Assembly: GCF_035594765.1 (NCBI RefSeq)
Contig: NC_085844.1
Span: forward strand, 209,204,107 to 209,268,106
Length of the DNA: 64,000 nt
Reading direction: 5' to 3'
Source: Anolis carolinensis
Taxonomy: Eukaryota
In this document: in pieces, positions 10,959-64,000 of the stretch
Position numbering within the stretch: position 1 is the first letter of the stretch
Layout of the letters: each line of letters opens with the position of its first letter
Notes under the pieces: model-generated
Told to the model about the DNA's origin: nothing
Databases searched by the model: none
What the model saw: the letters and a program-made list of their open reading frames with translations, nothing else
Program-made: the position numbers and the translations under genes

Positions 10959-11274
10959 CAGTGTTCCCTCACTACTTCGCAGTTCACTTTTCGCAGATTC
11001 AGTGTTTCGCAGTTTTTCAATAAACTCTAAAAGTCTACTATAAATAATAAAAAATTACAATTTACAGCCTAAGGGAGAGAAAAGGATCCCAAGTGGCAAC
11101 AGGAGGAGAAGGGGGCGATTTATCAACACACGATTGGTTGATAAAGACTTAAAATAGTTATAACTGCTAAAATAATGTATAAATATTAAAATAAATAGTG
11201 TCCCTACTTCACGGATTTTCACTTATTGCGGGTGGTCCTGGAATGTAACCCCCACGATAAGTAAGGGAGCACTA
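10959..11274. mobile_element. Tigger/pogo-like Tc1-mariner MITE
   Basis: TA|CAGTGTTCCCTC left end; close second copy at 48570-48910. Confidence 0.8.
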
Positions 11275-17806: not shown

Positions 17807-18129
17807 CAGTAGAGTCTCACTTATCCAAGCCTCGCTTATCCAAGCCTCTGGATTATCCAAGCCATTTTTGTAGTCAATGTTTTCAATATATCGTGATATT
17901 TTGGTGCTAAATTCGTAAATACAGTAATTACAATATAACATTACTGCGTATTGAACTACTTTTTCTGTCAAATTTGTTGTATAACATGAAGTTTTGGTGC
18001 TTAATTTGTAAAATCATAACCTAATTTGATGTTTAATAGGGTTTTCCTTAATCCCTCCTTATTATCCAAGATATTCGCCTATCCAAGCTTCTGCCGGTGC
18101 GTTTAGCTTGGATAAGTGAGACTCTACTG
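17807..18129. mobile_element. Tc1/mariner-type MITE, same family as 10188
   Basis: TIRs CAGTAGAGTCTCACTTATCCAAGC; TA TSD. Confidence 0.88.
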
Positions 18130-24283: not shown

Positions 24284-25004
24284 CTGAAAACATTGGAAGT
24301 GTATCAGGCTCAAGAACTGAATTCTTTTTTAATGTCATTTACACAGCACTTCTTTAATATACATACTTAGACATTTAATTAAGGCCTTCAGGATGGTGCT
24401 GCTTTGAGTCCAAGAGGGAAACAGATTAAAAAATGATTCCCATTCTATGCGCACATTCCTTTAAATTAGCTTAATTCTAGTCAGAGAAACAGTCGTCCTA
24501 AAATACTCCTCTAAATTCCTTATTTTCCAAGAACATTTGGTAAAGAAAAATAAATACAAAGGATGTGCTAGTTTTAAAAGGACAAAAAACAAAAACAAAA
24601 TGCAATTGTGCAATAACATCATCAAGACTAAGATGCAAATAAAACAAAAGTTTTGAGTTCTTTAGAACTCTCCTTCAGGCCATGCAAAATAAAAAATTAG
24701 AAACGGAAAAGTACAAAAATGAGGCCAGGTGTTGCTGCCACAAGGCCTGCGTTCAGAATGCATCTTCTTTTCATGGGCTCTGCAGATTCCAGAACGAATG
24801 TAAAGAACGTACTTATGCTCATGTACCACTGCCAAAATTTAAGCACCAGTTTAAGAATTATTATGAAAAGTTGAGCTAATGAGATTTATTAAGTAATACA
24901 AATCGTATTTGATTTAGTAATGCAAAACAGTTCATCTTGTGTGTCTATAGTGAAGATCAAGGCAAACAGCACCACATTACTTCCAAACCCAACAGTGACC
25001 TTAC

Positions 25005-25229
25005 CTGAGACTGCACATGCTGCGCAGGGCCAGGCCCCTAACCATAGGATTTGGGTCTGAGCAATCTTTGCATAGAGTATTGATAGCTAAGAGAGCTAAA
25101 TCAGGCTTCAGTGGAGCATACGTGCACATGTACAAGTAAACTAACTTCTTCTGAACAATATCCACAGTGGCACTAGCTTTAACCATCTCCATAAAGACCC
25201 CAGAGACATCTATACCTTGGGTCATATGC
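25005..25229 (-). CDS. AP4B1: AP4B1 coding exon 2
   Basis: ttcag|[10 protein letters not shown]...[12 protein letters not shown]...[18 protein letters not shown]|gtaag; 225 nt. Confidence 0.96.
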
Positions 25230-25816
25230 CTGAAAATAAGTGGTAAAAGCATGTAAATATGTGAGTACATATTATGGTACCTTTAAATCATAACAAACCC
25301 CGGGAATGGTCAGTACCCATGTATAAACCATATGTAATTTTGGGTCATATTAGGAAAAGAAGAATAAAATCAGTATGAATGTACATAAAATATTCAGAGA
25401 AAAGCTTCAGTTTCAACATAAACAGTTCAAACAAACTACTCCAAAGAAAAGTTTCAGTTAAAACTTTTTTTTAAAAAGCATTTCAAACAAAATTATCTAA
25501 AAGAACAAGGAAAGTGAAGAAGAAAAGTATAAGAAAGAGAGAGAGGAGGTGGGGAGCTGCAGAGCAGCAGATCTTGACTCTTTGACCAAATACTACTGTT
25601 TACATTCTGGTATATTTTATTTAATGGCTAAGAATCAGATACAGAATATAGCAGTTATCCCTTTCTCTAATACAACAATTTACATATTACAATAGCAACC
25701 ATGCCCAGTGTGTGTGTGTGTCAAAGTTATTAGAGCATATACTACTGACTCTAAGCCCTTAGCATTTTCCAAAGTCTATTAGACAAGTATTTGGCATATT
25801 GTACAAAGGTACAGAC

Positions 25817-25929
25817 CTGATCACACGCTGAATAACATTTCTATAGCGGAGGCGATCAGCTTGTACATGTGGGTTAGACAGTGCTCTCTTCAGCTCCTTC
25901 AGAGCATCCTCTGATCCAAGGTATGGCAT
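25817..25929 (-). CDS. AP4B1: AP4B1 first coding exon; full CDS of 10 exons = 2220 nt, 739 aa (AP-4 complex subunit beta-1)
   Basis: [38 protein letters not shown], 113 nt, weak donor AG|gtctgt. Upstream acceptor at 25977 implies a non-coding exon further up (candidate donor at 27500). All exon phases are consistent. Confidence 0.95.
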
Positions 25930-26318
25930 TTTGAAGAGAATCTGGGCTCCCAGAAGTTTTGAACATTGAAGAACCTTCTGTTATAGATACAAAGAGTAAA
26001 TGTGTCGGGTAGTAATCTACTCTCCGCTTGAAATTCTCCACAATGTATCAATTATGATGATGACAACAATGATTTTACTGACATCAATGTACGTATTTAG
26101 TTTAACAAAGGCCATAAGCCTGAAGGTACATAAACCACAAGGACAAAAGTGTGATGTGCCAGCAAAAGGATCACAAAAGGATTTCTGCATGCACCTGAGC
26201 TCTGAAATACCAGTATTTGCATAAATGTAATCAGAGTGAGGACTGATTCATGTGGCAAAGTCTGCTATGTATTGTTATGAGCTATTTGAGCATACAAAAC
26301 TTCGAAATACACAATTAG

Positions 26319-27281
26319 TTGGTTTGGTGTGAGTTTTCCAGGCTGTATGACCATGTTCCAGAAGCATTCTCTCCTGACGTTTCACCCACATCTATGGCAG
26401 GCATCCTTAGAGGTTGTGAGGTCTTTTGGAAACTAGGCATGTGGGGTTTATATATCTGTGGAATGTCCAGGGTGGGAGAAGTAACTCTTGTCTGTTTGAG
26501 GAAAGTGTGAATGTTGCAATCAGCCAGCTTGATTAGCGTTTAATAGCCTGGCAGCTTCAAAGCCTGGCTGCTTCCTGTCTGGGGGAATCCTTTGTTGAAG
26601 TGCTAACTGCTCCTGATTTTTTCTTGTCTGGAATTCCCCTGTCTTCTGAGTGTTGTTCTTTTTTTTTTTTACTGCCTTGATTTTAGGGTTTTTTTTAATA
26701 CTGGTAGCCAGATTTGATCATTTTCATGTTTTCCTCCTTTCTGTTGAAATTGTTCACATGTTTGTGGATTTAAATGGCTTCTCTGTGTAGTCTGACACGG
26801 TAGTTGTTAAGAGTGGTCGAGCATTTCTGTGTTCACAAATAATATTCTGTGTCCAAGTTGGTTCATCAAGTGCTCTGCTATGGCTGACGTCTCTGGTTAA
26901 GTCTGCAGTGCCTTTCATGTTCCTTTCATGTTGCTTGATTCATGTTTGGGCAATGATGGTGCCTATATAGACTTGTCCACAGCTGCATGGTATACAGTAG
27001 ACTCCTGCAGAGCTGAGAGGATCCTTCCTGTCCTTTACTGAACGTAGCATTTGCTGAATTTTCTTAGTGGAGCTGTAGATAGTTTGTAGATTGTGTTTCT
27101 CCATCAGCTTCCCTATGCGGTCAGGGGTTCCCTTGATGTACAGTAAAAACACTTTCCCCCTTGCCTAGTTTCCAACAGACTTCACAACCTCTGAGGATAC
27201 CTGCCATAGTTGTGGGTGAAACGTCTGGAGAGAATGCTTCTGGAACTTGGCCATACAGCTCGGAAAACTCATAGCAATCCA
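26319..27281 (-). mobile_element. Penelope-like retroelement, truncated, with inverted terminal arms
   Basis: GIY-YIG endonuclease fragment GVYCIPCSCGQVYIGT (ORF 26940-27152); 26319-26440 is an inverted copy of 27161-27281. Confidence 0.88.
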
Positions 27282-29436: not shown

Positions 29437-29774
29437 CCTGAATTCACCTCTCATTTAATTCACTGGGATTTGCCATGAATAAATATTGAGGATTAATTAG
29501 CAAGCAGTGCTACCCCATTCTCACATTATTTTTCTTCATTTGCAGTTAGCAGTGGATACCAATAAGAATATTACCCTATTATTAGCCTGCTTTTGGTTCC
29601 ATTTATAATCCTTAATTCTCATATATTCATTCTGGATATACATATTCATGTCTCGTTCATTGTTTTCTATTGAACGCTGTTAGCATTCCAACCCACTCCA
29701 ACCTTTTCCATGAAAAAAGCAATAACGAAGGAATATTCCAATTTCTCCCTCTTGTTTTTGCAGGACCTGGAGGG

Positions 29775-29963
29775 ATGAATGGGACTCTGATTCCCGGAAC
29801 ACCCATCGCAGTGGACTTCTGGAATATCAGGAAAGCTGCCCAGGCCCGCTTGTTCTTCCTCTCCCATATGCACACGGACCACACAGTGGGGCTCTCCAGT
29901 ACCTGGAACCGGCCTATTTATTGTTCTCCTCTTACTGGCCAAATCCTGCGTCTCAAGCTGAAG
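29775..29963 (+). CDS. DCLRE1B: DCLRE1B (Apollo/SNM1B) first coding exon; full CDS join(29775-29963,30050-30215,32538-32720,33530-34683) = 563 aa
   Basis: [16 protein letters not shown]...[18 protein letters not shown] carries the MBL HxHxDH motif; 189 nt; donor AAG|gtacgc; acceptor 11 nt upstream of the ATG. Confidence 0.95.
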
Positions 29964-30049
29964 GTACGCTTAGGCACAGATCTGTTGTCTTCTCCCATTT
30001 CACACAGAGAGGCCTATCATTAACTGTCATGCCTTCATTTTAATTCTAG

Positions 30050-30215
30050 GTGAGTGAGCAATGGATCCATCCTCTAGAAGTGGGAGAGAGCCATGTCTTG
30101 GCCTTGGATGAGATTGGGAAAGAGACCATGACAGTGACCTTGATTGATGCTAATCACTGTCCCGGATCTGTCATGTTTCTTTTTGAAGGCTACTTTGGAA
30201 TCATCCTATACACAG
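30050..30215 (+). CDS. DCLRE1B: DCLRE1B coding exon 2
   Basis: [15 protein letters not shown]...[25 protein letters not shown]|gtatgg; 166 nt. Confidence 0.95.
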
Positions 30216-30849
30216 GTATGGACTTCACTGTTCACAAGAGACAGGAAGTTCTCATGTTAGAGTTGAGCTTTTATTGCCTTCTGTGTTCCAGTTCTGCGGC
30301 TTCTTTGTTTGTCCCTCCATACAAACATTTTTATTACAACCTTTAGCTGTCTCATAGAAGGCACCTTATAAATAGAATTTGGAAGTAAGGAGATAACAGT
30401 GAGTTAGAATGAGGTTGACTTTCAAAAATAGCATAATAAGTGGAAATGAAGGTACCACTTCATGTGGTAGAAATAACATTTTAAAGTTGGTTTCAAAGTA
30501 TTTAAAGTGGCATTTAGCAGGAGATTTTTCAATTTTTTGTAAAAAAAACAAACAAAAAAAACCCCTGAAATGCAACAAAAAAGTAATGAGCAAAACAAGA
30601 AGGAAAGAATTACCTTTAAAAAGTAGCAGTAATTAGTTACTTTTTGAACACTAAAACAAATAATAACAAATTACTTTTTTTAAAGGTGATTTTCCAAGCT
30701 TGCCTATAATAATAGACTTTAAAAACATAGTCTTTTTATTTTTTTATTTTTACCATAATTGCATTGCAAATGTTACACATTTTGGTCAAGATATAATGCA
30801 ATACATTGGTGCCCTTGCTTCCCGTCCCTCCCCTTTGGTTTTCTTCCTA

Positions 30850-31735
30850 GAGAGGGTGGTGAAATGCTGACAGGAGATAGGGAAAAGACAAAACTACTCA
30901 ACATATCTTATTCGCCTCAGTTTTCTCCCATAAGGAAATAAGTGTTCAACTTGAGCAATATGGGACAGACAAGGTAATGGGGATATGCAACCCAAAATAG
31001 GTAAAGAAATACGCAAGGAATACCTGGCTACTCTAAACAAATCAAAGTTTTCAGGGCCAGATGAACTACATCCAAGGGCATTGAAGGAACTAGCAGAAGT
31101 AATTTCAGAACCACCTTTGAGAATTCTTGGAGAACGAGAGAAGTTCCAGCAGACCGGAGAAGGGAAAATGTCCCTATCTTCAAGAAGGGAAAAAATTAGG
31201 ACCTAAACAATTACCATCCAGTCAGCCGGACTTCAATATCAAGGGAAGATTCTAGAGCAGATCATTAAGGATCATTAAGGCCATCACTTAGAAAGGAATG
31301 CTGTGATCACTAAAGATAAACATGGATGTCACAAAAACAAGTAATGCTGGACTAATCCTATCTGTTTTTTCGATAAGAGTTACAAGCTTGGTAGATGCAG
31401 GAACTGCTGAGGATGTAGCATATCTTGATTTCAGTCAGGCCTTTGACAAAGTCCCCCATGACCTTCTTACAAACAAACTATTTAAATGTGGGCTAGATAA
31501 TATTACTGTTCGGTGGATCTGTAATTGGTTAAGCATCTGAACCCAAAAAGTGCTCACTAATTGTTCCTCTTCATCCTGGAAAAAAGTGACTAGTGGGGTG
31601 CCGCATGGTTCGGGCCTGGGCCTAGTACTGTTTGTTAATGACTTGGATGAAGGCTTTGAGGGCGTACTTGTCAAATTTGCAGATGACACCAGATGGCCCA
31701 TGTGGTCTCTTCCAACTCTATTATTTTATGAATCT
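30850..31735 (+). mobile_element. CR1 LINE RT fragment with internal deletion
   Basis: GPDELHPRALKELAEVISEP, YLDFSQAFDKVPHDLL and KFADDT motifs, joined directly to the CR1 3' tail. Confidence 0.88.
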
Positions 31736-31759
31736 GTTGATTTCCTGTTTCCTAGGCAA

Positions 31760-32335
31760 GAGACATTATTACTTTGAAGATGTATACAGGGTATTTTCGA
31801 AGATAGTAACACTAGATTAGACTCCCTGGCTAATCTTGTTCCTAGATAATTTTTGAGATGAAATTTTACCTGGTTCAGTCTTATTCAAAGCCTTCTATCC
31901 ATAGTTGTGAGTGTTCTCTTTTGAGCAATTTTAGAAATGGTTCCCCGTCCCTTTTGTAGTTGTTTTGTGTTTTTTCCTCAGAGCATCATTGTTAATTTAT
32001 CGATTTCTGCCAGATTAAAAAATTGTGAAATCCACTTTTCTGCGGTTGGCATTTTTTAGTTTTCTGCAAATAACATTCTCACCCAAATTATCATGTATTG
32101 TAATGGTTTTGCCTTTGTTGATTTCACTTGTCCATTCTGTAGTTCAGGGTTCAGTTGAATTGTAATTTTGATTTATTTTTTTTTGCAGTTGTTCTTGCAT
32201 TGAGTTCCAAAACTGTTTTGCTTTAGGTCTACCACATGGGGGAAATGTTCTTTGCCACACTCCCAGCATGTATTACTCATGCTCTTATCCATTTTAACAA
32301 TTCTTCTCAGAATTAGATACCACCTGAACAAATTG
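31760..32335 (-). mobile_element. L1 3' fragment (decayed)
   Basis: Minus strand encodes RWY...CWECGK..H...FW, an L1 C-terminal cysteine-rich region like that at about 58450-58590. Confidence 0.55.
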
Positions 32336-32537
32336 TATAGGTCAGGGATATTTTGTCTGGTGTACTGGTTGGAGTGTGAAAAAAGAAAATTTTAATCCCC
32401 ACAGAGTTATAAATAAGTAGCACTTGTCTTCCATAAGCAAGCCACACAAACCTGTTGCAACAATAAATCAATTAATAAATTAACTGCATGACTTTCTGTA
32501 ACAGTAACCAAAGAAGGGAACTTTCATTTCTCTCTAG

Positions 32538-32720
32538 GTGATTTCCGCTACTCTCCAAACATGCAGCAGGAGGAGGCTCTGAAGAATAAAAAGCTTATCA
32601 ACACCTTGTACCTGGACAATACCAACTGCTATCCTAGTTTTGTCTTACCATCCAGAGAAACAGCAACTGAACAAATCAAAGAAGTGATTAGGGCCCATCC
32701 ATCTCACCTCGTTAAGATTG
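32538..32720 (+). CDS. DCLRE1B: DCLRE1B coding exon 3
   Basis: ctag|(G)DFRYSPNM...[33 protein letters not shown]|gtaag; 183 nt; absent from the ORF track. Confidence 0.95.
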
Positions 32721-33529
32721 GTAAGAAACATTAATAGATTCAGAAGAATTTTTGCACTGTTTCATTGAGATAGAGAATCTTTGGGACAGTGACCTACATA
32801 AGATGAGAAACGTGTTGTTCTCAAGATGTTATTGAATTGCAATCTTCTCACTCACTGGCTTTACTGGCTAATGTGGAACCTAACACTTAATGGCCCAAAT
32901 TCCTATTGTTGATTCAGAGACGCAGTCTAGAGAGAATATGGAATTTATTGAAGGGGTTATGTTCCAGATCGAACTCTGAAGTAAGAGGTTGTCAGTTAAA
33001 CTGTAGTTACTATATCAGAAACACGTGTAGTAACGTCAGCTTAGGGCATTTCACTCCAGAGATTGAATGTAATAAAATCAGGCTGTCTAGCACAGGCAGC
33101 GCTGAGTTACAAACAACTCATAGATAAGAGCACAGGTTAGGCAATGGGAAGTGAGAGGGAATCTACCCCTAGGAAGATAAATTCTCTTCTGTAAGAGTTA
33201 TCATGGGGAAAAGGCTTATTTGCTGAAGTTTTATCACCAAACCTTGTTTCTACAAGCCAAATTTTTCAAACTCCAGTTATCACTGGGAGAGAAAATGAGG
33301 TCAAATCTCCCAAACGAGCACAGACAGCAAACCAAACACCACTGGGGTGTTAGCCCTTTCCTATGCTACCCAAAACTAAAAAAAATAAAAATGGCTGGAG
33401 TTACACTTAAAAATGCACCTGTTCGAACTTACATACAAATTCATCTTAACAAACCTACAGAATTTGTCTTGTTTGCAACCCAAGGACTACCTGTATTTGA
33501 AATGCTTACAGTTCTCTGCTTTCTTCTAG

Positions 33530-34683
33530 GTATCTACACTTTGGGAAGGGAATCCCTCTTGGTAGAACTGGCTCACGAATTCCACACTTGGATTGTAGTG
33601 AGTCCTCGGAGGCTGGAAATCATGCATCTGCTGGGATTGGATGATGTGTTTACTTCTGAGGAATGGGCTGGGAGGATTCACGCTGTGGATTTTTCTGAAA
33701 TCCGCCAAGCAACTATGATCAGCTGGAATCAGATTCATCCAACCATAGCCGTTCTCCCCACCAGCCGACCAGTGAAGATCAACCATCCCGGTGCTTATGT
33801 TGTACCCTATTCAGACCATTCCTCTTTCGAAGAGTTGCTGGAGTTTGTAGCTTGGCTAAAGCCTTGTTCCATAATCCCAGTGGTAAAAAGTGAGACATGT
33901 CAGATACATTTCCAGCAATATTTGACACCTTGGAATGGCTCCGTTCTGGAGTCCAGAGTCCCTGAATCAGTGACAAGATTCATGCAAAGTAGCAGGAAGT
34001 GGGAAAGGCCCTTCAAGGTGCAAAAACAGACTTCCATGCACCATGTGCCTAGAGGAGTTTTGTTTGAATCCTTAGAAGAATGTATTCATCCCATTGAAAA
34101 TGACTGCAGTGAAGAAATGCCCCAGCAAAGCTGCTCAGAACCCATGAAAGGATGTGTGTCTTCCTGTAAAGAAGAGTGTGTTGAATGTGAGGAGGAGAAA
34201 GAGAAAAATGAGGCAGAACCAAAAGCCCTTCAAAGCCAACAAGAAACTTTACCAATGCAATCTCCTTGTGTGACGTCCACACAGAAGCTAGACAACTTCA
34301 ATAAATCTCAAAAATGTCAGACTGCTCCAGAAGCAACACAAACAAACTCTTTATCAATGTCAAAGGGGGAGGCCTGTTTCACAGTCAGACAGTTCCCTGC
34401 AAGGAGGGACAAATTGTGCCATTTGGCCACAGAAAAACATGTTCTCTCAGCATCACTACATGCTCTTCAGGCTGAGATGCCGGGCAAGTTCACACTAAAG
34501 TATGAAGCATTCCAGCTGCTCAGTGACCAGCCTTCACGAAGCCTTCTCCCAGAATACGATTTGTCTCCACTCAACAGTCGAAAGCAATGGTCTGTATATG
34601 ACTTTGACTGGCAGGTTGAAAACTACTTAAAAAGAGGGAAAGAGTCTGCAGGTGTGGACCAATGCAAATTTGTGCTCAGATAA
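33530..34683 (+). CDS. DCLRE1B: DCLRE1B last coding exon (beta-CASP domain plus C-terminal tail with TRF2-binding YxLxP)
   Basis: ctag|(G)IYTLGRESLL...VPYSDHSSFEEL...YDLSP...*; AATAAA at 34805-34810. Confidence 0.95.
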
Positions 34684-34966
34684 AAATCTCTGGTAAAACC
34701 CAAAGCCCACGAACCAAGTTCCAAGAGCAAATAGTGACAGAACAATTTTAGTGTTACATTTTTCAAGTTGAATTTGTAAGATTTTATCCTTCATTGTTAA
34801 TGAAAATAAATCACAACCAACTTGGTTCAGAAGAAGAGCTAGAACTACAAGCAGGATGGTTTGCCTCTTGACCCTTTCAGAAATTTTGCAGTCTTAGGAG
34901 TTCCTATGAACATTAAGTGGACTGCTCACACTGGAGAGCTACCCCCTTTCAAAGTTTATAAAATAA

Positions 34967-36691
34967 CTAGCTGTTCCCGGCCACGCGTTGCTGTGGCGAA
35001 GTATGGTGGTATGGGAAATAAAGTATTGAGGAATTGGTGGTAGTTAAGGTCAAGGGTAAAGGTTTTCCCCAGACATTAAGTCCAGTCGTGTCTTACTCTG
35101 GAGGTTGGTGCTCATCTCCATTTCTAAGCCGAAGAGCCGGCGTTGTCCATAGACTCCTCCAAGGTCATGTGGGATGACTGCATGGAGTGGCGTTACCTTC
35201 CCGCTGGAGCAGTACCTATTGATGCACTCACATTTGCATGTTTTCGAACTTCTGGGTTGGCAGAAGCTGGGGCTAACAGTGGGGGCTCTCTCCGCTCCCC
35301 CAATTCAAACCTGTGGCCTTTCGGTCCAGAAGTTCAGCAGCTCAGCGCTTTAACACGCTGCGCCATCAGGGGATATTATTTCCTAAAGGTTGTGAATATA
35401 CAATATTCCTGATTGGTTTTTTTTGTTTGTTGGAGGCAAGTATGAATGCTGCAATTAGGAGAAATGATTAGGATGTAATGGCCTTGCAGCTTTAAAGCCT
35501 GGCTGTTTTCTCCCTGAGTGAATTTTTTGTTGGGAGGTGTTAGCTGGCCCTGATTGTTTCCTGTCTGGAATTCCCTTGTTTTCAGAGTGGTGTTGTTTGC
35601 GATATTTTATGTGCGTCTACTGTCTGTGGCCCTGAGAAAACAGGATTTGCCAGACTTTGATGATGGGAATACTTTGTTGGGAGGTGTTAGCTGGCCCTGA
35701 TTGTTTCCTGTGTGGAATTCCCCTGTTTATTTACTGTCCTGGTTTTAGAGATTATATTGTTCTGCATTATTCTATCCCAGTAATTATTTCATATTAAAGA
35801 AGAATCTCACTTATCTAACATTCGCTTATACAATGGATTATCCAACGCAGTCTGCCTTTTCATAATCAATGTTTTTGTAGTCAGTCTTTTAAATTAATTG
35901 TGATATTTTAGTCGTAAATGTGTAAATACAGTACAGTAGAGTCTCACTTATCCAACATAAACGGGCCGGCAGAACGTTGGATAAGCGAATATGTTGGATA
36001 ATGAGGAATTAAGGATAACCCTATTAAACATCAAATTAAGTTATGATTTTACAAATTAAGCACCAAAACATCATGTTAGACAACAAATTTGACAGAATCC
36101 CTTTTCCTGAATCCCTTCTTATTATCCAACATATTCACTTATCCTGCCGGCCTGTTTGCATTGGATAAGTGAGACTCTACTGTATATTTCTAATCTTATA
36201 TTATCTGCTCAGAACTGGATTATATGAGGCTCCTTCTTCACAGCTGTATAAAATGCACACTGAAGTGGATTATATGGCAGTGTGGAGTCAAGATAATCCA
36301 GTGCAAAGCAGATAATATAAGATTATAAATGGGTTATATAGCTGTGTTGAAGGGCCTTGAGTCTACACTGCCATATAATCTAGTGCAAATTAGATAATCT
36401 GTGGAAGAAGTCTAAGTGAGGCCTAAATCTGCCTGTCCCCTAACTGAAACCTGGCTGTCCCTTGGTTGCTAGGCAACCAAGTGGGCAGAGATTAGCCCTC
36501 TAAACTGGCAGCAATTGGATTAAAAAATTATTGCTCTCCCTCTCATTAGGACTTTATTTTTCTTTTCTTTTTGTTGTATCAACCTTGAGGCGTGGATGAT
36601 GGGTTGTGTTGTCAAATTTTGAGGTTGGGGGGCCTGTACTTTTGTTGTTTTGTGAGTCGCCATGATGCCATCACTCTTTTATATATATAGA
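34967..36691 (-). mobile_element. Non-autonomous Helitron, copy 1 (1725 bp), carrying captured TE fragments
   Basis: Minus strand: 5' TCTATATATATAAAAGAG; GC-rich hairpin GCCACAGCAACGCGTGGC 13 nt from the CTAG-3' end; inserted between A(34966) and T(36692) with no TSD. Second copy at 62167. Confidence 0.85.
35045..35371 (-). mobile_element. Sauria SINE carried inside the Helitron (also 62245-62571)
   Basis: Plus-strand aaggtcaagggtaaaggtt is the ACCTTT-type tail; characteristic body; tRNA-like head at the right end. Confidence 0.8.
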
Positions 36692-36699
36692 TAGACTAG

Positions 36700-37960
36700 C
36701 CCCATTTTTATGCAATTCTTTGCTCATTTGGAAACCACAGCTTGAGCCCTCTTACAGGCCCTTACTTTCTGCACCATCCATCTAAAATGGGAGAAATACA
36801 GATGTTCTCATATTTAAGACCTTTTCATCTAAGGGAAAATGAAAACTATAGGCAGGTTGATATCCCATTTACTTGGTTCCAAGAATGTCAGATTATTTAT
36901 TTCATTTCACACCTAATCATAAATTAGATTCCAAGGCTCCTAACTTTCCATGAAAAGTTATGCACTGGAGACAACCTTCAAATGAAGGGGAATCTGGGTG
37001 CTATTTACAAGGAGTTGATTGAGCGTGTTTATGGAAATGGACAATTTGTTCAAGTGCAATGGCAGTCCAGTTGAAATCTGATTAGGCTCAGAGTATGTCA
37101 CTCTTCTTGAGTATGTCACCCAAAAGCGACCGAAGAAGGGGTTCGAAAAACTACATTAATAGTAGTCAATACCCATACAATTATCCTGAATGACTAAAAA
37201 TATCACACAGATGTTGGAGGAGATGTAAAGATCTGGGGTCACATAATCACATGTGGTTCCAGTGTCCTAAAATTAGAAGTTTTTGGATCATAGTCCTACA
37301 CCAAGCACTACTGATTACCCAGCTGACTGTTTCCCTGGCTCTTTTATTACTACCTCTTTATAAACATAAAAAGTTGTAAACTTTTCAGGGCAGAGGTTAC
37401 CAAATGGAAGGAGCCCCCAGTGGCGTAGTGGTTTAAAGCCTTGTGACTTGAAGGTTGGGTTGCTGACCTGAAGGCTGCCAGGTTCGAATCCCACCCGGGG
37501 AGAGCACGGATGAGCTCCCTCTATCAGCTCCAGCTCCATGCAGGGACATGAGAGAAGCCTCCCACAAGGATGGTAAAAACATCCAGGCGTCACCTGGGCA
37601 ATGTCTTAGCAGACAGCCAATTCTCTCACACCAGAAGCAACGTGCAGTTTCTCAAGTCGCTCCTGACACGAAAAAAACAAACATGGAAGATGAGGGTTCT
37701 CAAATCTGATAATGGGTGGTTAAGAATCTGGAATATCTGGCTGCTTGAAAAACTTCCACACAGCACAAAAGCTTATCACTATCATAAAAGAAAATACATT
37801 ATATGAGTACTGTTCAATCTTTATTGAATATGTTAAACATTTACATCAGCTGCTGCATCTGTATGGCGAGACCAAGCTCTGGAAAAACAGTTTCTGGATT
37901 TCTTTTCTACAAGCGATGAGCCCTTTGATGGTATGGTGGAACATTTGGCCTCTAAAAGAA
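36700..37960 (+). mobile_element. Old L1 3' remnant interrupted by a SINE
   Basis: Decayed CWRRC...HMWFQCPKIRSFW zinc-knuckle at about 37210-37290. Confidence 0.55.
37410..37680 (+). mobile_element. tRNA-derived SINE (Anolis SINE2-like)
   Basis: Pol III A box TGGCGTAGTGG (37421), B box GGTTCGAATCCC (37481), A-rich tail, flanking repeat atggaag; second copy at 52398-52667. Confidence 0.85.
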
Positions 37961-42099: not shown

Positions 42100-43250
42100 A
42101 ACCAATAGAATGTTGAATGCCAGATCAGTTAATGGGAAAACGACCACTATAAGTGATCTGATACTAGAAGAGTGAGCAGACCTGGCATTTATAACAGAAA
42201 CCTGGTTGGACGAGTCGGGTGGGCCTAACCTCACTCAGCTCTGTCCTCCAGGTTACTCTGTTCAGCACCAGCCAAGATGTGGAGGGCGGGGAGACAGGGT
42301 TGCAATAATCTATAGGGATTCTATCCCCGTGACCAGATGCCTCATCCCGCAATCTACCTCATTTGAAAGCGTCCACCTGCTGGTAGGAGACCGGGACAGT
42401 ATAGGGATATTTGTAGTGTACCGTCCACCCTGCAACACTACAAACTCCCTGACTGAGCTAGCCAGAGTAATCTCGAGCTTGGTGTTGGAGTCTCAGCGGC
42501 TTCTTGTGCTGGGAGACTTCAACATACACGCAGAGACCACCCTGTCGGGAGCGGCTCAGATTTTCATGGATACCGTGGCAACCATGGGACTGTCCCAAGT
42601 GATTTCTGGCCCTACCCACTGTGCTGGACATACATTGGACTTGATATTTTGCCAGGGATGGGAGAATGGTGGTGGTGTGGAAGAGCTCTAGTTAGTCCCA
42701 CTGTCATGGACCGACCACCACTTGGTCAAGTTTAGAATTACTGCAACCCCTAACCTCTGCGGGGGTGGTGGACCCATTAAGATGGTCCGCCCCAGGAGGC
42801 TTATGGATCCAAATGGATTCTGATGGCTCTTGGGGATGTTCCCGCCTCCTCGGTAGGTGATTCTGTTGATGCTCTGGTCACTCTCTACAATGGGAAGATG
42901 GCCAGGGCAATAGACACGATCGCTCCGGAGCGGCCCCTCGCAATGCGCAGAGCTAAACTAGCGCCCTGGTTCTCCGGGGAGTTGGCTGCGATGAAGCATG
43001 AGACGAGGCGTGTCGGCCCTGGTGGAATTATGTATTAGTCACCCGCTGCTGTGCAGAACAATTTGATGTTCCAGTTTTCAAAGTAACTATTATGTTGTTT
43101 TTATCTTGTATTGCATTGTTTTTTTAAATTTCATTGTGTGTATTGTATGCTATGTTGTCATATTCTTGTAAGCCACCTCGAGTCCCTGCAGGGAGATGGT
43201 GGCGGGGTATAAATAAAGTTGTTGTTGTTGTTGTTGTTGTTATTATTTAT
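42100..43250 (+). mobile_element. L2-clade LINE: APE endonuclease region joined to the 3' tail (RT deleted)
   Basis: LNARSV, ITETWL, YRPP, LGDFNIH, THCAGHTLDL and TDH motifs with stops; L2-type tail at 43170-43250. Confidence 0.8.
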
Positions 43251-46200: not shown

Positions 46201-48569
46201 ACGGGGTCTATTCTAATTAGGAATAGGAATTGTATTTAGGCCTGTAAAAGCTCCTCATTTCAAAATATATTTATTTGGAATTACCACTGAAACATGTCAC
46301 TAAAAATATGGGCACATTTTTGAAGTTTCACAGCAAAATCTTTCTAAACTAACATTAAATTCTTCCAAACTTGAGATACACGGCAAAGACATTTTACACC
46401 TGTGATGTTTGTACCATTACATTAAAAGGAAAACAACCACAAGTAGTTTATTTATTGAGGTGACAGGCTTTTGGATGGAAATTTCCCCACCTTTCCAGTT
46501 TCAGTATGAGTCTTTGTTTTATCAGATATGATACAAACCTCTTGTTATTTCTCAATGACGTCTCCACTTACAGAGTTTTCTGTCCAATCATGCAAATATA
46601 TCTGATACAAGATACTGTTCTATTGACTTTGCTTAGAAAGTCCATGGTTACAGGTAAACATCTGATAAAGGAAAAGGAATGTATTTTTTTTCCTTTCATG
46701 CAGTTTCTGATGAGGTAGTTTTCCAGTTATTTCAAATGAAAATGGGTGTTCTTTGGAGATTTATTCAAGGTAAAAGGAGATTTTAAAAAAAATCAAATCT
46801 GCATATTGTGGCTGTAGCGTGGTGACACAATATTTTTGGAGCACCAGTCCTGCACTGCTTCAGACTGAAGACTGTAGGTTATAGTAGAGGCAAACCATCA
46901 CATCCCCATACCCTTCAGGCCAATCTCTTATGGTAGGACAGAAAACTGTCTTCAACTGGCTCTGACCTTGCTTGTGTGATAATGAAGCATGTCAGCAAAA
47001 GCAGCTCCTTCTCTACAATTTTCCAAAAGCAAAGACCCTGATTTTTTAAATCTGCTTCTAAGTAAGTTCTGCCTATCTTCAAGCTCTCCAGTGCACAGGT
47101 TCAAAACATGCAATTTGGTTCGGCAAACCCCAGCATTATTATTTTCTTCATCAGATCTCAAACTCAAAATGTGTCATGGAAATGCAGTTAAAATCAGCCC
47201 ATTTCCCACAACAGGATGAATTTGGGACAGTCACCCCTTTTAGTTTGTTGTGAGGATAAAATAGAAAGGATATAGCAACAATGTATACTAACTTGAGTTT
47301 CTTTGGGAAAGTATACATTTAACAAATGCAATAGGATGTGGTTCTTAAAATGTCTACAAGCCTTACTGTGAAAAAAGTGGCAAATCTATGTAACAAATTA
47401 CTCTTTATACAGAATGGTTCGCATTGCAATTGGTCAAGCTGTCAGGCCAGGTTTCTACTGCATGAACAGAGTTCTGAAACATGACTTTTTTGAACTACAG
47501 CTACCAGTATAAAGTGCTATAATTCTAAAAAGTAATGATTCCACGTTCTGCATCTGAATGCAGCCTAATTGGGAAACAGGCTTGAGACTGATTAGTAATT
47601 GAAATATCACATTAATAACTTCTGTAAGAAAGTTAACAGACATCCCAGCATATTACGCATTCAATATTACTCAGTCCTAGCCAAAGTGATGGTCTGGGGA
47701 CTGTAAGCGACTGGCTGCTGGTCTGCAGTGAGTTTAGAGGACATCATCCAAATACAATACTAACATGACTTAAATAATATGGTACCAATCCCTAGCAGAT
47801 AGCAAAAATGAAATAAAACAAACATTAAAAATGCTGTCCTATTACATCATGTAGCTTCAAAGTCACTGATCTGGATAGTGTTCAAAACAGTCTATGTACA
47901 ATTATAATTCCTGAGCATTAAAGGCATTGAGCAACTACTGTTGTTGCATAAAGGCAAAGGACGCCACAAATAACATTTGGTGTCTCTGCTAAACATCCAG
48001 AGAGGGGTTTTTGCTCTGAAAGGGAAAACACAGCAAAGCAGGGGAAATTCTATAGACACAGGAATTTGCTGTTGTCCTTGCTGACTGAGGGTGGAATGCC
48101 CATCTCTCCCCGCTAGTAATCACACAGATCCCACAGTAATCACATTATTCTAACAAAGGCAACATTACTTGACATTATAGCTCAGACAAGTTAGTTTTCC
48201 TTTCTGAAATGGCACTTTTTCCACCGTAATGGTTTTCAACTGCTAAGGGAAGTAACACACTATCATTTAGCATCTTTATAAAAAAACAGAGAGAAAGCTC
48301 ACTGACATTAGAAAACAGAGCACAGCAATATAATTCCTCTATTGTCAACATGAGGCTAACAGGGCCAGCACCCATGCCATTTTGCTGCCTGAAGCAAAGA
48401 ACAAGATGGTGATCTTTCAGTTCCATCTGCACAAGCTGAGAAGACTAGCATAAGATCCTTCACGTCATCTGAGAGTGGTAAACTAACTTAAAGCCAACTG
48501 AGAATGAATCTACACTGCCATATAATGCAGTTGGAAATTGCATTATATGGTTAGCTGGGAAGTGCATTA

Positions 48570-48910
48570 CAGTGTCCCCTCACTACTTTATGGTTCGCTT
48601 TTTTGCAGATTCGCTGTTTCGTGGTTTTTCAATAAACTCTAAAAGACTATTATAAATAATAAAAAATTACAATTTACAGCCTAAGGAAGGGAGGAAGGAG
48701 AAGCTGAAGGGAGAGAAAAGGAGCCCAAGCGGCAACGGGAGAAGGAGGCGATTTATCAACACACGATTGGTTGATAAAGACTTAAAATAGTGTATAACTA
48801 CTAAAATAATGTATAGATATTAAAATAAATATAGTGTTCCTGCTTCGAGGATTTTCACTTATTGCAGGTAGTCCTAGAACGTAACCCCAGCGATAAGAGA
48901 GGGAACACTG
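48570..48910. mobile_element. Tigger-like MITE nested in a palindromic MITE (about 48505-49008)
   Basis: TA-flanked CAGTGTCCCCTC / GAGGGAACACTG termini; host element has tctacactgccatataatgcag / ctgcattatatgtcattgtaga inverted ends. Confidence 0.8.
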
Positions 48911-51169: not shown

Positions 51170-52700
51170 AAAGGAAGTTAAAGACCCTGATTTTAATATT
51201 TATATTAGGATGTTTTCAATGCTTTGCCTTAGTATTAAATGCTGTATATGCCTAGGTTTTAATTATTTTGATTTATAGTTATATGTCAGTGTCTAGTTAC
51301 ATGGTTTTACTGTATGTATGTTGGCATGGAATTCTTGTTATTAACATGTTGTAAACTGCCTTGAGTCCCCCCAGGGGGTGAGAAAAGCGGTATATACATA
51401 CACTAAATAAAACTACAACTCTCAGGATTCCACAGCATTGAGCCATGGCTCAATTGTAATTTATTGTAATTTTTAATCTTGATGGATTTTTAAATTTGAT
51501 GACAACTGTTTTTAATGTGTATGTTTATATTGTAAGCCGCCCTGAGTCCCCTGATGGGCGAGAAGGGCAAGGTAGAAGTGATGTAATAAATAAATAAAAT
51601 AAATGGCAGTTAAAGTGGCGCCAAACTACATTATTTCTACAGTACAGATGCACCCTATGGAGACTGGAGATTGAATCCCAACTCAGCCATGGAACCTTGG
51701 ACAAGTCATACTCTCTCAACCCAAGTCACCCTCAGACTAAAACTGTATTATTTATTTATTGCATTTATATACCGCTTATCTCACCCCTGGGGAGGGGGAC
51801 TCAAAGCGGTTCACATCAAATAAATGACAAAAATACAATGCCTCACATACAGTAAAAACAGTTTATCACACATCTAAAACAGTAACATATAACTATACAT
51901 CAAACAATTAAAAACTATAAACCATCAAACATAAACATAAAACATTTTAACATTACACCGATCCCAAGGTTGTCATCCATCTGCTACATTATTGTTGTAA
52001 TTCACTGATTTGTTTTTATTGTTGTGTTTTATATTGTCTGTTTTGCCTGGGCTTGGCCCCTTGTAAGCCGCCCTGAATCCCCTTGGGGAGATTGGGCAGG
52101 GAATAAAAATAAAATTATTTTGCCTGGGCTTGGCCCCATGTAAGCCGCCCCAAGTCCCCTTGGGGAGATGGGGCGGGGTATAAAAATAAAATAACTATTA
52201 TTTATATTGTTATTATAATGCATGTTTGCATAACTAAGTTTTTAGTTGTTTTCTAAACATCAGGAAGGAGGGGGGCCAATCTAATCTCACTGGGAAGGGA
52301 GTTCCACAGCTGAGGGGCCACCATCAAGAAGGTAGTCTTTCGTCCCCACCAACTGCACCTGCGATGGTGGCAGGACCGAGAGCAGGACCTCCACAGCTTT
52401 TTTTTTTTTCCGTGTCAGGAGCAACCGGAGTTGCTTCTGGAGCGAGAGAATTGGCCGTCTGCAAGGACGTTGCCCAGGGGACGCCCGGATGTTTTGATGT
52501 TTTATCATCCTTGTGGGAGGCTTCTCTCATGTCCCCGCATGGAGCTGGAGCTGATAGAGGGAGCTCATCCGCGCTCTCCCCGGGTGGGATTGAACCTGGC
52601 AGCCTTCAGGTCAGCAACCCAACTTTCAAGTCTCAAGGCTTTTATCCCCTAGGCCACCGGAGGCTCCGACCTCCCCAGCTGATCTTAATGGTCTAACTTT
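51170..52700. repeat. Cluster of short L2 3'-tail fragments in both orientations
   Basis: Repeated gtaagccgccc(t/c)gagtcccc...ggg(g)cgg(g)gtat..aaataaa motif at about 51350, 51530, 51770 (inverted), 52060 and 52140. Confidence 0.7.
52398..52667 (-). mobile_element. tRNA-derived SINE (Anolis SINE2-like) inserted into an L2 fragment
   Basis: Poly-T tail on the plus strand; 12-bp TSD GACCTCC(A/C)CAGC at 52386-52397 and 52668-52679. Confidence 0.88.
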
Positions 52701-53455: not shown

Positions 53456-54699
53456 TAATGAACTCATGTAATTACACCAGTTTAAAATCATAGTGGTGTA
53501 AGTTACAGGAATCACAGCTAAGACGCTATGTGTTCCTTCATGGAGGCCTGGTTGACATTTCAGAATAGCAAATGCTTCCTGGAGAATGGGCCCAAAATGG
53601 ACAGTATTCAGTGGGTGGAGGAAGAATCTGAAGGGTTTATATGTTCTTGCCTTATGGTCACCTTATGTCAGAAACACAACAACAAAGCGATACAACTTTC
53701 AGTTACTAAAGACCTGAGCCATGTAATTTAAGTACTAGAAATGTGTACTTTCTCAGCCCTTAGAAGAGAATATGAGGGGACAAGCCAAGCCTCTTCAAAA
53801 CATGCCTGGAAAAATATACCGAAAGGTGCTTCTGAAGTTATATTTTATTTTTGGCTATCCATAAACCCACTGATTGGAAAGGTACTTGCCAATGGCCAAA
53901 CCTTTCCCACCAAGGTGCTAAAATATTTACATGACAATAAGATGCAGCGGGGCAGGAATGCTCCCTCTTCAAAGGACATACCGAAGGGGCCCGCGGGGTT
54001 TCAGGGCTGCTGTTTAAAAAGGGACACAGCGGTGGGTTTCAACAAGAATTTCGAAAACCGTTGATTTTTACCAGTTGGAAAAGAACCACTGAGGATACCT
54101 CACAAGCGGTTTGGATTCTAGAAGGCATTCGAGGCCTTCGACGGGTGAAAGGCAGCCATTTCTTTAGGCTCTGCCCGAAGAAAGTTCATTTTCTGGGCAG
54201 ATCCAGAAAGAACCGAGTTTTCTGCTTAGCTTGGCGAAGCCCTTTGGATCAAGCCATGCTCAGATGGAAAAGACGTGAGTAAAGTCGGGCGAAATGGGCG
54301 AGAGAAGGGGAAAGAAAGGCCACTTGAGCTTTTGCTTGCCTGCTTTAGAAAGTCCAAGGAGAGGGTGCGAGTTAAGCCACGGAGGTTAGCCTACGGCTGT
54401 TAGGAATGGTGGGAGTTGAAGTCCAAAACACCTGGAGGGCCGAAGTTTGCCCATGCCTGGTCTACACTGTAAAATGAATGCAGATTGGTACCACTTTGAC
54501 TGCCTTGGCGCGTAAATGCACCCCAGGCCTCTTGAGTCACGAGTGAGTTAGGCCTACTTCGTTCAGTGGACGTTGTTCATTCCCTAGTTCGGTGTTTTGT
54601 GTGTGGCGTCGTTTAGCTTCTCTGTGCGTGTCTTTATATGTGAAATATCCTTGAAGGAGAGCTTCATGACTGGAGAAAAAACCTTCTTTCTTTCCCACC

Positions 54700-55450
54700 T
54701 TCCTTCCTTCGCGCCAAGGACCCATCATGGCGGCGCCAACAGCTTTTCGGGGAGGGGGTGTCACGTGACCCTCGCCCAATCACTAGTCTCGGCGCTCGAC
54801 TGCTTCGGCCTCTTCGTGCCGCGCGCTGGCAGCCGCCCTCCTCGTCCTCCTTTTCGTCGTCGTCCCCCTCCGGCGCTCGAGGCTTCCTGGGCTCGGCAGG
54901 CTGGGCCTGGCTGCGGCGAGGGGCGCGAGAGCAGCAGCAACAGCAGCAGCAGCAGCAGCTGGGCTGAACTGAGGGAGGAAGGCGAGGCGAAAGAAGGAAG
55001 GCAGGAAGGGGGGCGGCTGAGGAGGGCGCGGCGGAGGCCGGAGGAGACGGCGGCTAGGAAGGCGGCTCGCTGGCGGGCGGGCGAGGAGGGCCGAAGCCTG
55101 GCGGAACCGCCGGGGGGTTGCCTGCGGGCTGGCCGGCTCCACAAGGCCAAGGCGGCCCGGCAGTGGCGGCGGCGGCGGCTGCTGCGCCTCCTCGCCCGGG
55201 CCGGCCTCGTCTCCGGCGGGTAGGATGCGCCCGCTCGTCCCCCGGCACCGGCAGGCAGCTCCCGGCCCGACCCGCGGCTGAGGCGCCCCGAACGGCGGCG
55301 AGTAAGTGCGAGGGGAGCGGCCTTCGGGGCACCCGGGGCGGAGGGAGGAAGGGAGGGGAGAGGTAGGCCCCAGCCTGGGCCTGAACGCGGCTGAGAACAG
55401 GCCGGGCCTTTGGCGCCACCGGGACCTTCCCACTCGCTGCGAACTAAACA
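54700..55450 (+). promoter_or_regulatory. HIPK1: CpG island and non-coding first exon (donor GA|GTAAGT at 55302), probably HIPK1
   Basis: Very GC/CpG-rich. YY1-like ATGGCGGC (54727), GTCACGTGAC (54760-54769), CCAAT (54776). Gene identity is from synteny only; no kinase exon lies in the window. Confidence 0.6.
54932..54958 (+). repeat. (CAG)2 CAA (CAG)6 trinucleotide tract in the CpG island
   Basis: Direct reading. Confidence 0.9.
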
Positions 55451-55672
55451 GAGTTGGAAGAGAGCCCAAGGGCCAGCCAGTCCAACCCCCCTCTCGCGTA
55501 GTCACGCCATCAAAGCACACCCGACAGATGGCCACCCGGCCTCTGCTTAAAACACACCACAGTGTATAGACCAGGCATGGGCCAACTTCGGCTCTAGGAG
55601 GTGTTTTGAACTTCAAATTTTACATTTTTTTAACAGGTCCAAAACACCCCGAGGGCCAAAATTCGCCTAGGC

Positions 55673-55778
55673 CAGTGGTTCTCAGCCTGTGGGTCCTGGT
55701 AAACAGCTGGTAAACTGGCTGGGATTTATGGGAGTTGTAGGCAAAAACACCTGTGGACCCACATGTTGAAAACCACTG
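55673..55778. mobile_element. SPIN-like hAT MITE
   Basis: CAGTGGTTCTCA / TGAAAACCACTG termini; perfect 8-bp TSD GCCTAGGC. Confidence 0.85.
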
Positions 55779-55816
55779 GCCTAGGCGTTCTCTTATCGTC
55801 AACAAGCTCTTCTTTT

Positions 55817-56889
55817 GTATTGCTATGAGTATGGCCATGTTCCAGAAGCATTCTCTCCTGATGTTTCTCCCATGCCTATAGCAGGCATCTTCAGAGGTTG
55901 TGAGGTATATTGGAAAACTAAACAAGGGAGGTTTATATATCTGTGGAAGGTCCAGGGTGGGAGAAAGAACTTTGTTGTCTGTTGGGGGCCACTGGGAACG
56001 TTGTAATTAATCACCATTAGCATTAATGATCTTGCAAGCATCATTCCTGCCTGGGGAAATCCCTTGTTCAGAAGTGTTAGCTGCTCCTGATTGATTTATG
56101 TCTGTAATTCCTGTTTTCAGAGTGTTGTTCTTTATTTACTGTTCTGATTTTAGAGTTTTTAAAATACTGGTAGCCAGATTTTGTTCATTTTCATGGTTTT
56201 CTCCTTTCTGTTGAAATTGTCCAAATGTTTGTGGATTTCAGTAGCTTCTCTGTGTAGTCTGACATGATAGTTGCTAGAGTGGTCCAGCATTTCAGTGTTC
56301 TCAAATAACACACTATGTCCAGGTGGGTTCATCAAGTAGGCAAGTAGGGTTTTTTCTATCTGGAATGTTCAGGGTGGGGAAAAAAATCTTTATCTGCCTG
56401 AGGCAAGAGTGAATGTTTCAATTGGCCAGCTTGATTAGCATTGAAATCTATAAGCATGTGGACAATTTCAACAGAAAGTAGGAAACCATGAAAATGAACC
56501 AAATATGGCTACCAGTATTAAAAAGCTCTAAAATCAGGATAGGAAATAAAGAACAACGCTCATAAGACAGTGGAATTCCAGACAAGAAACAATGGGGGCC
56601 AGCTAACACCTCCCAACAAAGGATTCCCCCAGGCAGGAAACAGCCAGTCTTTGAAGCTGCAAGGCTATGCATTGCAAATCAAGCTGCCCAATTGAAACAT
56701 TCACACTTGCCTCAGGCAGACAATAGTTCTTTCTCCCACCTTGAACATTTCAGTTATATAAACCCCACTTGCCTAGTTTCCAACAGACCTCACAATCTGT
56801 GAGGATACCTGTCATAGCTGCAGGTGAAATGTCAAGAAGGAATGCTTCTGGAACATGGCCATATAGTTTGGAAAACTCACAGCAACCCA
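55817..56889. mobile_element. Penelope-like element, two arms in inverted orientation
   Basis: 55817-56240 is mirrored by 56445-56889; same family as 26319-27281. Confidence 0.85.
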
Positions 56890-62166: not shown

Positions 62167-64000
62167 CTAGCTGTGCCCGGCCACGCGTTGCTGTGGCGAA
62201 GTATGGTGGTCTGGGAAATAAAGTATTGAGGAATTGGTGGTAGTTAAGGTCAAGGGTAAAGGTTTTCCCCAGACATTAAGTCCAGTCGTGTCTTACTCTG
62301 GGGGTTGGTGCTCATCTCCATTTCTAAGCCGAAGAGCCGGCGTTGTCCGTAGACTCCTCCAAGGTCATGTGGGATGACTACATGGAGCGGCGTTACCTTC
62401 CCGCCGGAGCAGTACCTATTGATGCACTCACATTTGCATGTTTTCGAACTTCTGGGTTGGCAGAAGCTGGAGCTAACAGTGGGGGCTCTCTCCGCTCCCC
62501 CAATTCAAACCTGTGGCCTTTCATTCCAGAAGTTCAGCAGCTCAGCGCTTTAACACGCTGCGCCATCAGGGGATATTATTTCCTAAAGGTTGTGAATATA
62601 CAATATTTCTGATTGGTTTTTTTTGTTTGTTGGAGGCAAGTATGAATGCTGCAATTAGGAAAAATGATTAGGATGTAATGGCCTTGCAGCTTTAAAGCCT
62701 GGCTGTTTCCTCCCTGAGTGAATTTTTTGTTGGGAGGTGTTAGCTGGCCCTGATTGTTTCCTGTCTGGAATTCCCTTGTTTTCAGAGTGGTGTTGTTTGC
62801 GATATTTTATGTGCTTCTACTGTCTGTGGCCCTGAGAAAACAGAGGATTTGCCAGACTTTGATGATGGGAATACTTTGTTGGGAGGTGTTAGCTGGCCCT
62901 GATTGTTTCCTGTGTGGAATACCCTTGTTTTCAGAGTGATGTTGTTTGCGATATTTTATGTGCTTCTACTGGCTGTGGCCCTGAGAAAACAGGATTTGCC
63001 AGACTTTGATGATGGGAATACTTTGTTGGGAGGTGTTAGCTGGACCTGATTGTTTCCTGTGTGGAATTCCCCTGTTTATTCACTGTCCTGGTTTTAGAGA
63101 TTATATTGTTCTGCATTATTCTATCCCAGTAATTATTTCATATTAAAGAAGAATCTCACTTATCCAACATTCGCTTATACAATGTTCTGGATTATCCAAC
63201 GCAGTCTGCCTTTTCATAATCAATGTTTTTGTAGTCAGTGTTTTAAATTCATTGTGATATTTTAGTGGTAAATTTGTAAATACAGTACAGTAGAGTCTCA
63301 CTTATCCAACATAAACGGGCCGGCAGAACGTTGGATAAGCGAATATGTTGGATAATGAGGAATTAAGGATAACCCTATTAAACATCAAATTAAGTTATGA
63401 TTTTACAAATTAAGCACCAAAACATCATGTTAGACAACAAATTTGTCAGAAAAAGTAGTTCAGTACACAGTAATGCTATATAGTAATTACTGTATTTATG
63501 AATTTAGCACCAAAATATCACGATATACTGAAAACATTGACTACAAAAATGCGTTGGATAATCCAGAACGTTGGATAAGCGAGTGTTGGATAAGTGAGAC
63601 TCTACTGTAAATACTACATAGCATTACTGCGCATGGAACTACTTTTTCTGTCAAATTTGTTGTATAATATGATGTTTTGGTTCTTAATTTGTATAACGAT
63701 TACCTAATTTGATATTTAATTGGCTTTTCCTGAATCCCTTCTTATTATCCAACATATTCACTTATCCTGCCGGCCTGTTTACGTTGGATAAGTGAGACTC
63801 TACTGTATATTTCTAATCTTATATTATCTGCTCAGAACTGGATTATCTGAGGCCCCTTCTTCACAGCTGTATAAAATGCACACTGAAGTGGATTATATGG
63901 CAGTGTGGAGTCAAGATAATCCAGTGCAGAGCAGAAAATATAAGATTATAAATGGGTTATATAGCTGTGTGGAAGGGCCTTGAGTCTACACTGCCATATA
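62167..64000 (-). mobile_element. Non-autonomous Helitron, copy 2 (its 5' end lies beyond the window)
   Basis: Same A|CTAG end and identical hairpin; collinear and highly similar to 34967-36375. Confidence 0.85.

Follow-up and report, generated by a model that had tools for sequence, protein, structure and literature searches.

The system closest to the element described here is Helitron-2N3_AC of the green anole. According to the text of Novick et al. (Genome Biol Evol 3:1; PMC3014272), who found their families with PILER and RepeatScout, it is 2,000 bp long, is present in over 1,000 copies diverged by 1.98%, carries SINE and Poseidon fragments, and is the only composite Helitron family of the anole reported there. 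In the same text all non-autonomous anole Helitrons are internal deletions of autonomous ones, a TA target-site duplication (TSD) is listed, and the observation that anole Helitrons capture DNA is credited to Piskurek et al. 2009. Helitron-2N5_AC matches Helitron-2N3_AC in length and is similarly diverged, and the mariner-type TcMar-N7_AC is given as 323 bp with a TA TSD and a terminal inverted repeat (TIR) shared as TcMar-N7/N8_AC. The hobo_AC composites described in that text are likewise anole DNA transposons that amplify SINE and Penelope cargo, but they are hAT elements with TIRs and 8-bp TSDs. In bats, the RepHel protein of Helraiser is described as nicking at the 5' TC, peeling off one strand, stopping at the hairpin and CTAG, forming a circle and integrating at A/T (the slash marks the point of insertion; PMC4778049). 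Helraiser and HelibatN3 resemble the present element in the 5' TC, the 3' hairpin with CTAG, the A/T target without TSD, and the amplification of captured DNA by non-autonomous families; the bat cargo in that account includes gene promoters, whereas here it is transposon sequence. HeligloriaB, which was horizontally transferred and has 667 anole copies, is delimited in its published text by over 80% identity in the terminal 30 bp (PMC2997563), and we set it beside our element by description; the 3' end studied here also occurs in foreign contigs. Squam1/Sauria SINEs are about 350 bp long; Pol III boxes and an ACCTTT tail are described for them (PMC10058329).

We analysed a 64-kb stretch of anole DNA, referred to as the window, in which a preliminary description had proposed a Helitron loaded with pieces of other transposons. 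This copy 1 (34967..36691, minus strand, 1,725 bp) is almost beyond doubt a Helitron. On the minus strand it begins with TCTATATATATAAAAGAG from 36691, preceded by A, and ends in CTAG (34967-34970) with T next, so that both proposed ends were found. Its 3' terminus (34967..35036) contains an 18-nt hairpin at 34980-34997. The GC hairpin had been placed 13 nt from CTAG; it lies 9 nt before CTAG and 13 nt from the element end. Copy 1 therefore carries the canonical 5' TC, 3' CTRR and 16-20 nt palindrome near the 3' end, the CTRR being CTAG in both window copies and in five metagenome contigs. Taken by itself, the fold of the copy 1 hairpin is weak (z -1.07; 27 of 200 shuffled sequences do equally well). 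Within the window its sequence appears in two places only, one in each copy, against an expectation of none, and it is identical in all seven aligned ends (copies 1 and 2 and the five metagenome contigs). Scanning the window for a GC stem followed by CTRR/T gave four sites, two of which are the ends of copies 1 and 2. None of the seven inverted pairs found in the element is a TIR.

The 5' region up to the TC start (36420..36691, minus strand) has very high depth in public sequencing runs and no second copy elsewhere in the 64-kb window; other copies diverge at 36692-36695, and the alternative boundary at 36695 likewise begins TC. A 6-bp direct repeat, ACTAGC, flanks copy 1 at 34966-34971 and 36695-36700. 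It was rejected as a family-wide TSD: the left one also occurs in copy 2, where the flank differs, and most other copies depart from the sequence before reaching the right one. The repeat is local to copy 1, whose ends show no TA duplication. The claim of an A/T site without TSD thus holds for the family, with T after CTAG in both window copies and A before TC in other copies; for copy 1 itself the target is A/T or G/T, given an empty site 4 bp shorter than predicted. Copy 1 is non-coding: its longest stop-free frame is 94 aa, and tblastn with the anole RepHel protein P0014 found no remnant in it.

A metagenome scan for the 3' terminus, with a search pattern that included the T after CTAG, returned five contigs (L002-L006), four of them with RepHel coding remnants next to the terminus. 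All five contain the whole hairpin, including six bases outside the search pattern. The last 56 bp of copy 1 are 84-86% identical to the ends in L002, L004, L005 and L006, and the last 31 bp are 94% identical to L003. In L002, a PIF1 helicase frame (E 6e-64) ends at the shared terminus; in L003 and L006, a match to P0014 lies upstream of it. The frames of L005 and L006, for which Pfam returned nothing, were placed by homologue search, which matched them to the N-terminal part of RepHel proteins (30 of 120 proteins for L005, 18 for L006); L004 gave no RepHel match. P0014 is an Anolis carolinensis protein of 1,124 aa with Helitron_like_N, Rep and PIF1 domains. It is 70% identical to the L002 helicase, ranks ninth among 1,030 homologues, and joins the L002 clade with support 1.0 in a midpoint-rooted tree of L002 and its best 45 of 120 proteins. 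Judged from these alignments, the shared 3' end is a real Helitron end, and P0014, known here from the protein alone, or a close paralogue would be the mobiliser. Positions 1021-1143 of L006 hold a tandem pair of Helitron 3' ends, the first degenerate, as end bypass predicts. Viral contigs gave no match to the exact 5' and 3' motifs. A looser pattern found one viral contig, L001, which is 66% GC and gene-dense, has no T after CTAG and lacks the first half of the hairpin; we regarded it as a chance match and left it out of the 3'-end alignment.

Between the termini, all parts of the mosaic proposed earlier were recognised. The first is a tRNA-type SINE of 327 bp (35045..35371, minus strand) with A- and B-box-like motifs and a degenerate ACCTTT tail. 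Compared with free copies, which leave the alignment at 35365, its head is short by about 5 nt, and it shows no target duplication by eye. From these features it is likely Sauria/Squam1. The supplements of PMC10702118 contain no SINE consensus. Next comes the 3' piece of a Penelope-like element (35410..35790, minus strand), with tandem units of 147 bp, one fewer than in copy 2. Free fragments at 26488-26661 and 56055-56713 share 77-90% identity with it, and it is assigned to the Penelope type because these free relatives match a reverse-transcriptase protein, P0001, in which a GIY-YIG-like motif occurs; a Pfam scan of the 73-aa Penelope piece returned nothing, and the piece was placed through homologue search. 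Free Penelope-type fragments span 26320-27281 and 55736-56889 in all, the latter consisting of two parts in inverted orientation.

The third part comprises nested mariner-type MITEs (35795..36184), a younger TcMar-N7-type MITE inserted at TA in an older relative whose left TIR is eroded. Its TIR and the one published for TcMar-N7/N8_AC agree in all 20 bases; this agreement and the protein matches would indicate the green anole or a close relative as the source. In copy 1, 269 bp of the MITE are lost near 36097-36101; in copy 2 the inner MITE is 320 bp, with TA on both sides, inside the older relative. TIR, length and TA TSD accord with TcMar-N7_AC: a free MITE at 17807-18129 has the published 323 bp. 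Free TcMar-N7-type MITEs with TA duplications lie at 10188-10492 and 17807-18129. The last part is a palindromic, AT-rich, MITE-like segment (36186..36400) with three inverted repeats (I2, I3 and I5) and no family match, which has a 35-bp relative at 48505-48539. The region 48505-48909 begins with this relative, followed by TA and a TIR like those published for TcMar-N9/N11/N16, and a second such MITE lies at 10957-11273. Four weak Rfam matches, the best a mir-34 look-alike on the palindrome, fell far under the gathering score and were discarded. Against their free copies, the inner MITE is 91.6-94.4% identical, the outer MITE 85.4%, and the Penelope part 77-90%.

The same mosaic had been said to recur with the same junctions 27 kb away. 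Copy 2 (62167..64000, minus strand) does share the internal junctions and the 3' end, but three indels set it apart, each of them additional sequence in copy 2: a further tandem Penelope unit (149 bp), 5 bp within the outer MITE, and 269 bp from the interior of the MITE, so that its inner MITE (63288-63607) is intact. Copy 2 is cut by the window end at 64000, which is equivalent to position 36377 of copy 1, and therefore its TC end lies outside view. Over 1,411 aligned bases the copies are 97.9% identical (29 mismatches, 2.1%), and the divergence is even: terminus, SINE, Penelope part and MITE are each 97.4-98.0% identical. The similarity ends at CTAG. Beyond it the 200-bp flanks are at the level of random pairs, 51 of 200 of which score as high, which excludes a segmental duplication; the preliminary description had named similarity into the flanks as the result that would speak against it. 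At 36088-36115, the 269-bp deletion in copy 1 takes out the loop of a long inverted repeat, and the deletion site holds a short motif, GAATCCCTT, twice, 14 bp apart, a duplication that we take to resemble templated end-joining repair.

Other copies were examined in contigs from seven of 24 listed public sequencing runs, placed on the window. In each of four runs, summed contig depth, which is not itself a copy number, reached 3x10^5 or more in every one of the 17 element bins, and none of the 13 flank bins exceeded 58. A rough floor of 850-1,800 copies would follow if the SINE-Penelope linker depth (at 35408) is divided by the flank depth and by 31; the depth at the Penelope-MITE link (35816) is similar. 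Contigs from other copies, with 7-13 differences from copy 1, span three internal junctions: terminus to SINE (34976-35078), SINE to Penelope (35317-35429) and Penelope to MITE (35735-35851). Loose ends at 35365 and 35932 show that free SINE and MITE copies are present too. At the 5' end, other copies enter unrelated long flanks at 36692, 36693, 36694, 36695 and 36697 (agreement 0.37-0.52). None of the 24 of 86 contig endings listed diverges at 36691, and therefore the A before TC is common to the copies. About equal numbers of copies match TA and A alone before TC. An excess of 23-26 contigs per run diverges at 36695, reflecting either a TCTA-extended end or GATA-repeat targets.

Among the 15 of 1,021 joints listed, multi-copy joints skip parts of the interior, for example one from 34997 to 36547 in four of four runs, and one from 35036 to 36181, which skips the entire SINE-Penelope-MITE block, in two of four. 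They show shorter siblings, which may be either ancestors or derivatives. A further joint leads from 36693 back to 36659 across 16 intervening bases; it was seen in three of four runs at several-fold flank depth and suggests that the 5' end is duplicated or nested in some copies. Many loci with both termini, A/T flanks and shared junctions had been expected. Contigs with the TC end and with the junctions bear this out in part; the whole element with both ends and cargo is in one piece only in copy 1, and elsewhere the link between TC and cargo consists of continuous depth and joints. The even divergence of about 2% over all cargo, the unrelated flanks and the confinement of high depth to the element uphold the proposal that the composite was amplified as a unit. 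Piskurek, Nishihara and Okada (2009, Gene 441:111) reportedly concluded that the evolution of the youngest Sauria SINEs took place within rolling-circle transposons, the same idea as the earlier suggestion of a SINE amplified in a Helitron.

An empty orthologous site, which had been recommended as a check, was found in organism B, a relative that diverges by a few percent in the flanks and is rich in the same Helitron family. One 2,282-bp contig of run X10 spans both flanks without the element. By its coordinates 34966 stands beside 36696, so the site is 4 bp shorter than the predicted aaataa/tagact, and the 5' boundary is therefore 36691 or 36695: either the former (A/T) with a 4-bp indel between the organisms, or the latter with G/T after GCTAG. 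Among 1,751 Helraiser insertions in the published text, 46 were not at AT (PMC4778049). In organism A, contigs lead from the right flank into the element in five of six runs and from the left flank in two of three, with 21-29 element bases, under our 31-base bridging rule. Run X15 had no cover at 36712-36747 and run X9 none at the left junction, so both are uninformative there. No empty allele was seen among the contigs listed for organism A. The locus is usable as a presence/absence marker between the two organisms.

Taken together, these results lead us to read copy 1 as a non-coding Helitron with native ends, whose interior block was likely captured once and which was then likely copied as a unit by a RepHel acting in trans, and which likely belongs to the family Helitron-2N3_AC; we put the probability of this reading at about 0.88. 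The native 5' TC and 3' hairpin-CTAG ends flank the SINE, Penelope and nested-MITE block, and by analogy with Helraiser everything between the two ends would travel. The cargo is presumably old, repeat-rich genomic DNA taken up between native ends, likely in a single event, by gap filling or by read-through from the 5' end of one element to the 3' end of a neighbour; the element would then likely have been copied whole by RepHel supplied in trans. The 3' end is the one native to the family, and for this reason uptake between native ends is likelier than read-through with a new end. The cargo differs by 6-23% from its free relatives versus 2% between the copies, and was therefore old at capture and amplified later.

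That the two loci arose by segmental duplication, or by independent insertions between ends that look Helitron-like by chance, is a negligible prospect. The insignificance of the hairpin fold, the 6-bp direct repeat and the free occurrence of the cargo families (loose ends at 35365 and 35932) would fit it, but similarity stops at CTAG, many copies end just past TC in unrelated flanks, at both ends the depth drops to that of single-copy DNA, RepHel frames lie next to the shared 3' end in other contigs, and organism B has an empty site; the flank, depth and 5'-end data refute it. A cut-and-paste vehicle of the hobo/hAT type, with ACTAGC as its target duplication, has little more to recommend it. 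Hobo composites with SINE and Penelope cargo are described in the anole (PMC3014272, in its text), and in the organism B contig the site can formally be read as a single 6-bp repeat. Against this, the published hobo TIR and 8-bp TSD are absent at the ends, there being no TIR among the seven inverted pairs, and both copy 2 and the five foreign contigs have CTAGC as element sequence, so that the shared hairpin-CTAG end refutes a cut-and-paste origin. Piecewise arrival of the cargo, each element transposing into a short Helitron, deserves more weight, and we still think it unlikely. In its favour, the inner MITE is flanked by a TA duplication of its own, little of the SINE is missing, and the multi-copy joints skip different interior parts, one of them (35036 to 36181) the whole block. 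However, the SINE lacks its first bases and a visible target duplication, the left TIR of the outer MITE is eroded, the Penelope part is a fragment, and the 6-23% distance from free relatives indicates that the cargo was old before amplification. Piecewise arrival would alter only how the master copy formed.

The element is probably Helitron-2N3_AC, an identity that rests on length, divergence and cargo types. With the deleted bases restored, copy 1 measures 1,725+269+5 = 1,999 bp against the published 2,000 bp, and the two window copies differ by 2.1% against 1.98% for what is likewise a non-autonomous anole Helitron. The published copy number of over 1,000 has as its counterpart here only a rough estimate from depth. 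The SINE features and Penelope-type homology correspond to the SINE and Poseidon fragments, matched at the level of Penelope. Differences are also evident: the nested TcMar MITEs of our element are unmentioned in the published text, and Helitron-2N3_AC is derived there by deletion from Helitron-2_AC, whereas no RepHel remnant occurs here. A TA TSD is tabulated for it and copy 1 has none, for which reason we call the identity likely, not certain; TA does precede TC in many copies and follow CTAG in copy 2, and the published entry likely reflects insertion into TA runs. That the same mechanism produced a distinct and undescribed composite family is a poor prospect in our judgement. It would accommodate the published text, which names SINE and Poseidon fragments only and no MITEs, as well as the many multi-copy variants. 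Against it, Helitron-2N3_AC is the sole composite anole Helitron in that text, with agreeing length, divergence and cargo types, and such abundance would hardly escape PILER and RepeatScout.

The preliminary description held that repeat annotators would miss the vehicle, and that an existing consensus would remove the novelty. A composite anole Helitron with SINE and Poseidon fragments is already in print (text of PMC3014272), so the vehicle was not missed, although individual copies may still be broken up by annotation software, and the properties of Helitron-2N3_AC make it likely that the novelty is lost. Little is therefore new at the family level, since amplification of SINE and Penelope pieces by a composite anole Helitron has been published. 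We found no internal map of Helitron-2N3_AC in the literature; subscription papers, Repbase Reports or supplements may give one. The map of the nested MITEs, the shorter siblings and the empty site with its 4-bp ambiguity may be new.

Copy 1 had been placed about 155 bp downstream of an AATAAA signal. The measured distance is 156 bp, from the AATAAA at 34805..34810 (plus strand), which follows the final exon of a gene with a DRMBL domain (stop codon at 34681-34683). Judged by its sequence and by gene order, we take this gene to be DCLRE1B. It lies on the plus strand (29616-34683), head to head with an adaptin-N gene (AP4B1-like, minus strand, 25001-25933). The element itself supplies an AATAAA on the strand of the gene at 35017-35022, 212 bp after the first. 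An SINE-sized repeat, 720 bp from copy 1 at 37410-37681, recurs inverted and 85% identical at 52400-52667, and is possibly, as we assume, Anolis SINE 2. Frames at 42176-42691 and 57582-57884 presumably represent remnants of a LINE endonuclease and reverse transcriptase. A GC-rich island with a CAG-type run at 54588-55619 probably marks where the next gene starts; copy 2 would then lie in an intron. Since few Helitron insertions reach fixation in populations of the green anole (PMC7561263), the presence of copy 1 in five of six runs beside the poly(A) signal of a DNA-repair gene is a small lead; no evidence of a function of copy 1 was found.

It is a tentative and rather doubtful idea that nested amplified siblings sharing their ends (cargo-free forms of about 180 bp and about 590 bp, and the 2-kb composite) record the gain of cargo, and that copy 1 sits in a non-canonical GCTAG/T site mimicking its own 3' end. 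If true, the sibling series and this site would make capture and target choice of a vertebrate Helitron reconstructable stepwise, beyond the 2010 description. For the anole genome at large, counts and age profiles of SINE, Penelope and TcMar elements would include, by rough estimate, about a thousand hitch-hiking copies. Because these copies hitch-hike in a Helitron, they are unfit as independent retroposon markers.
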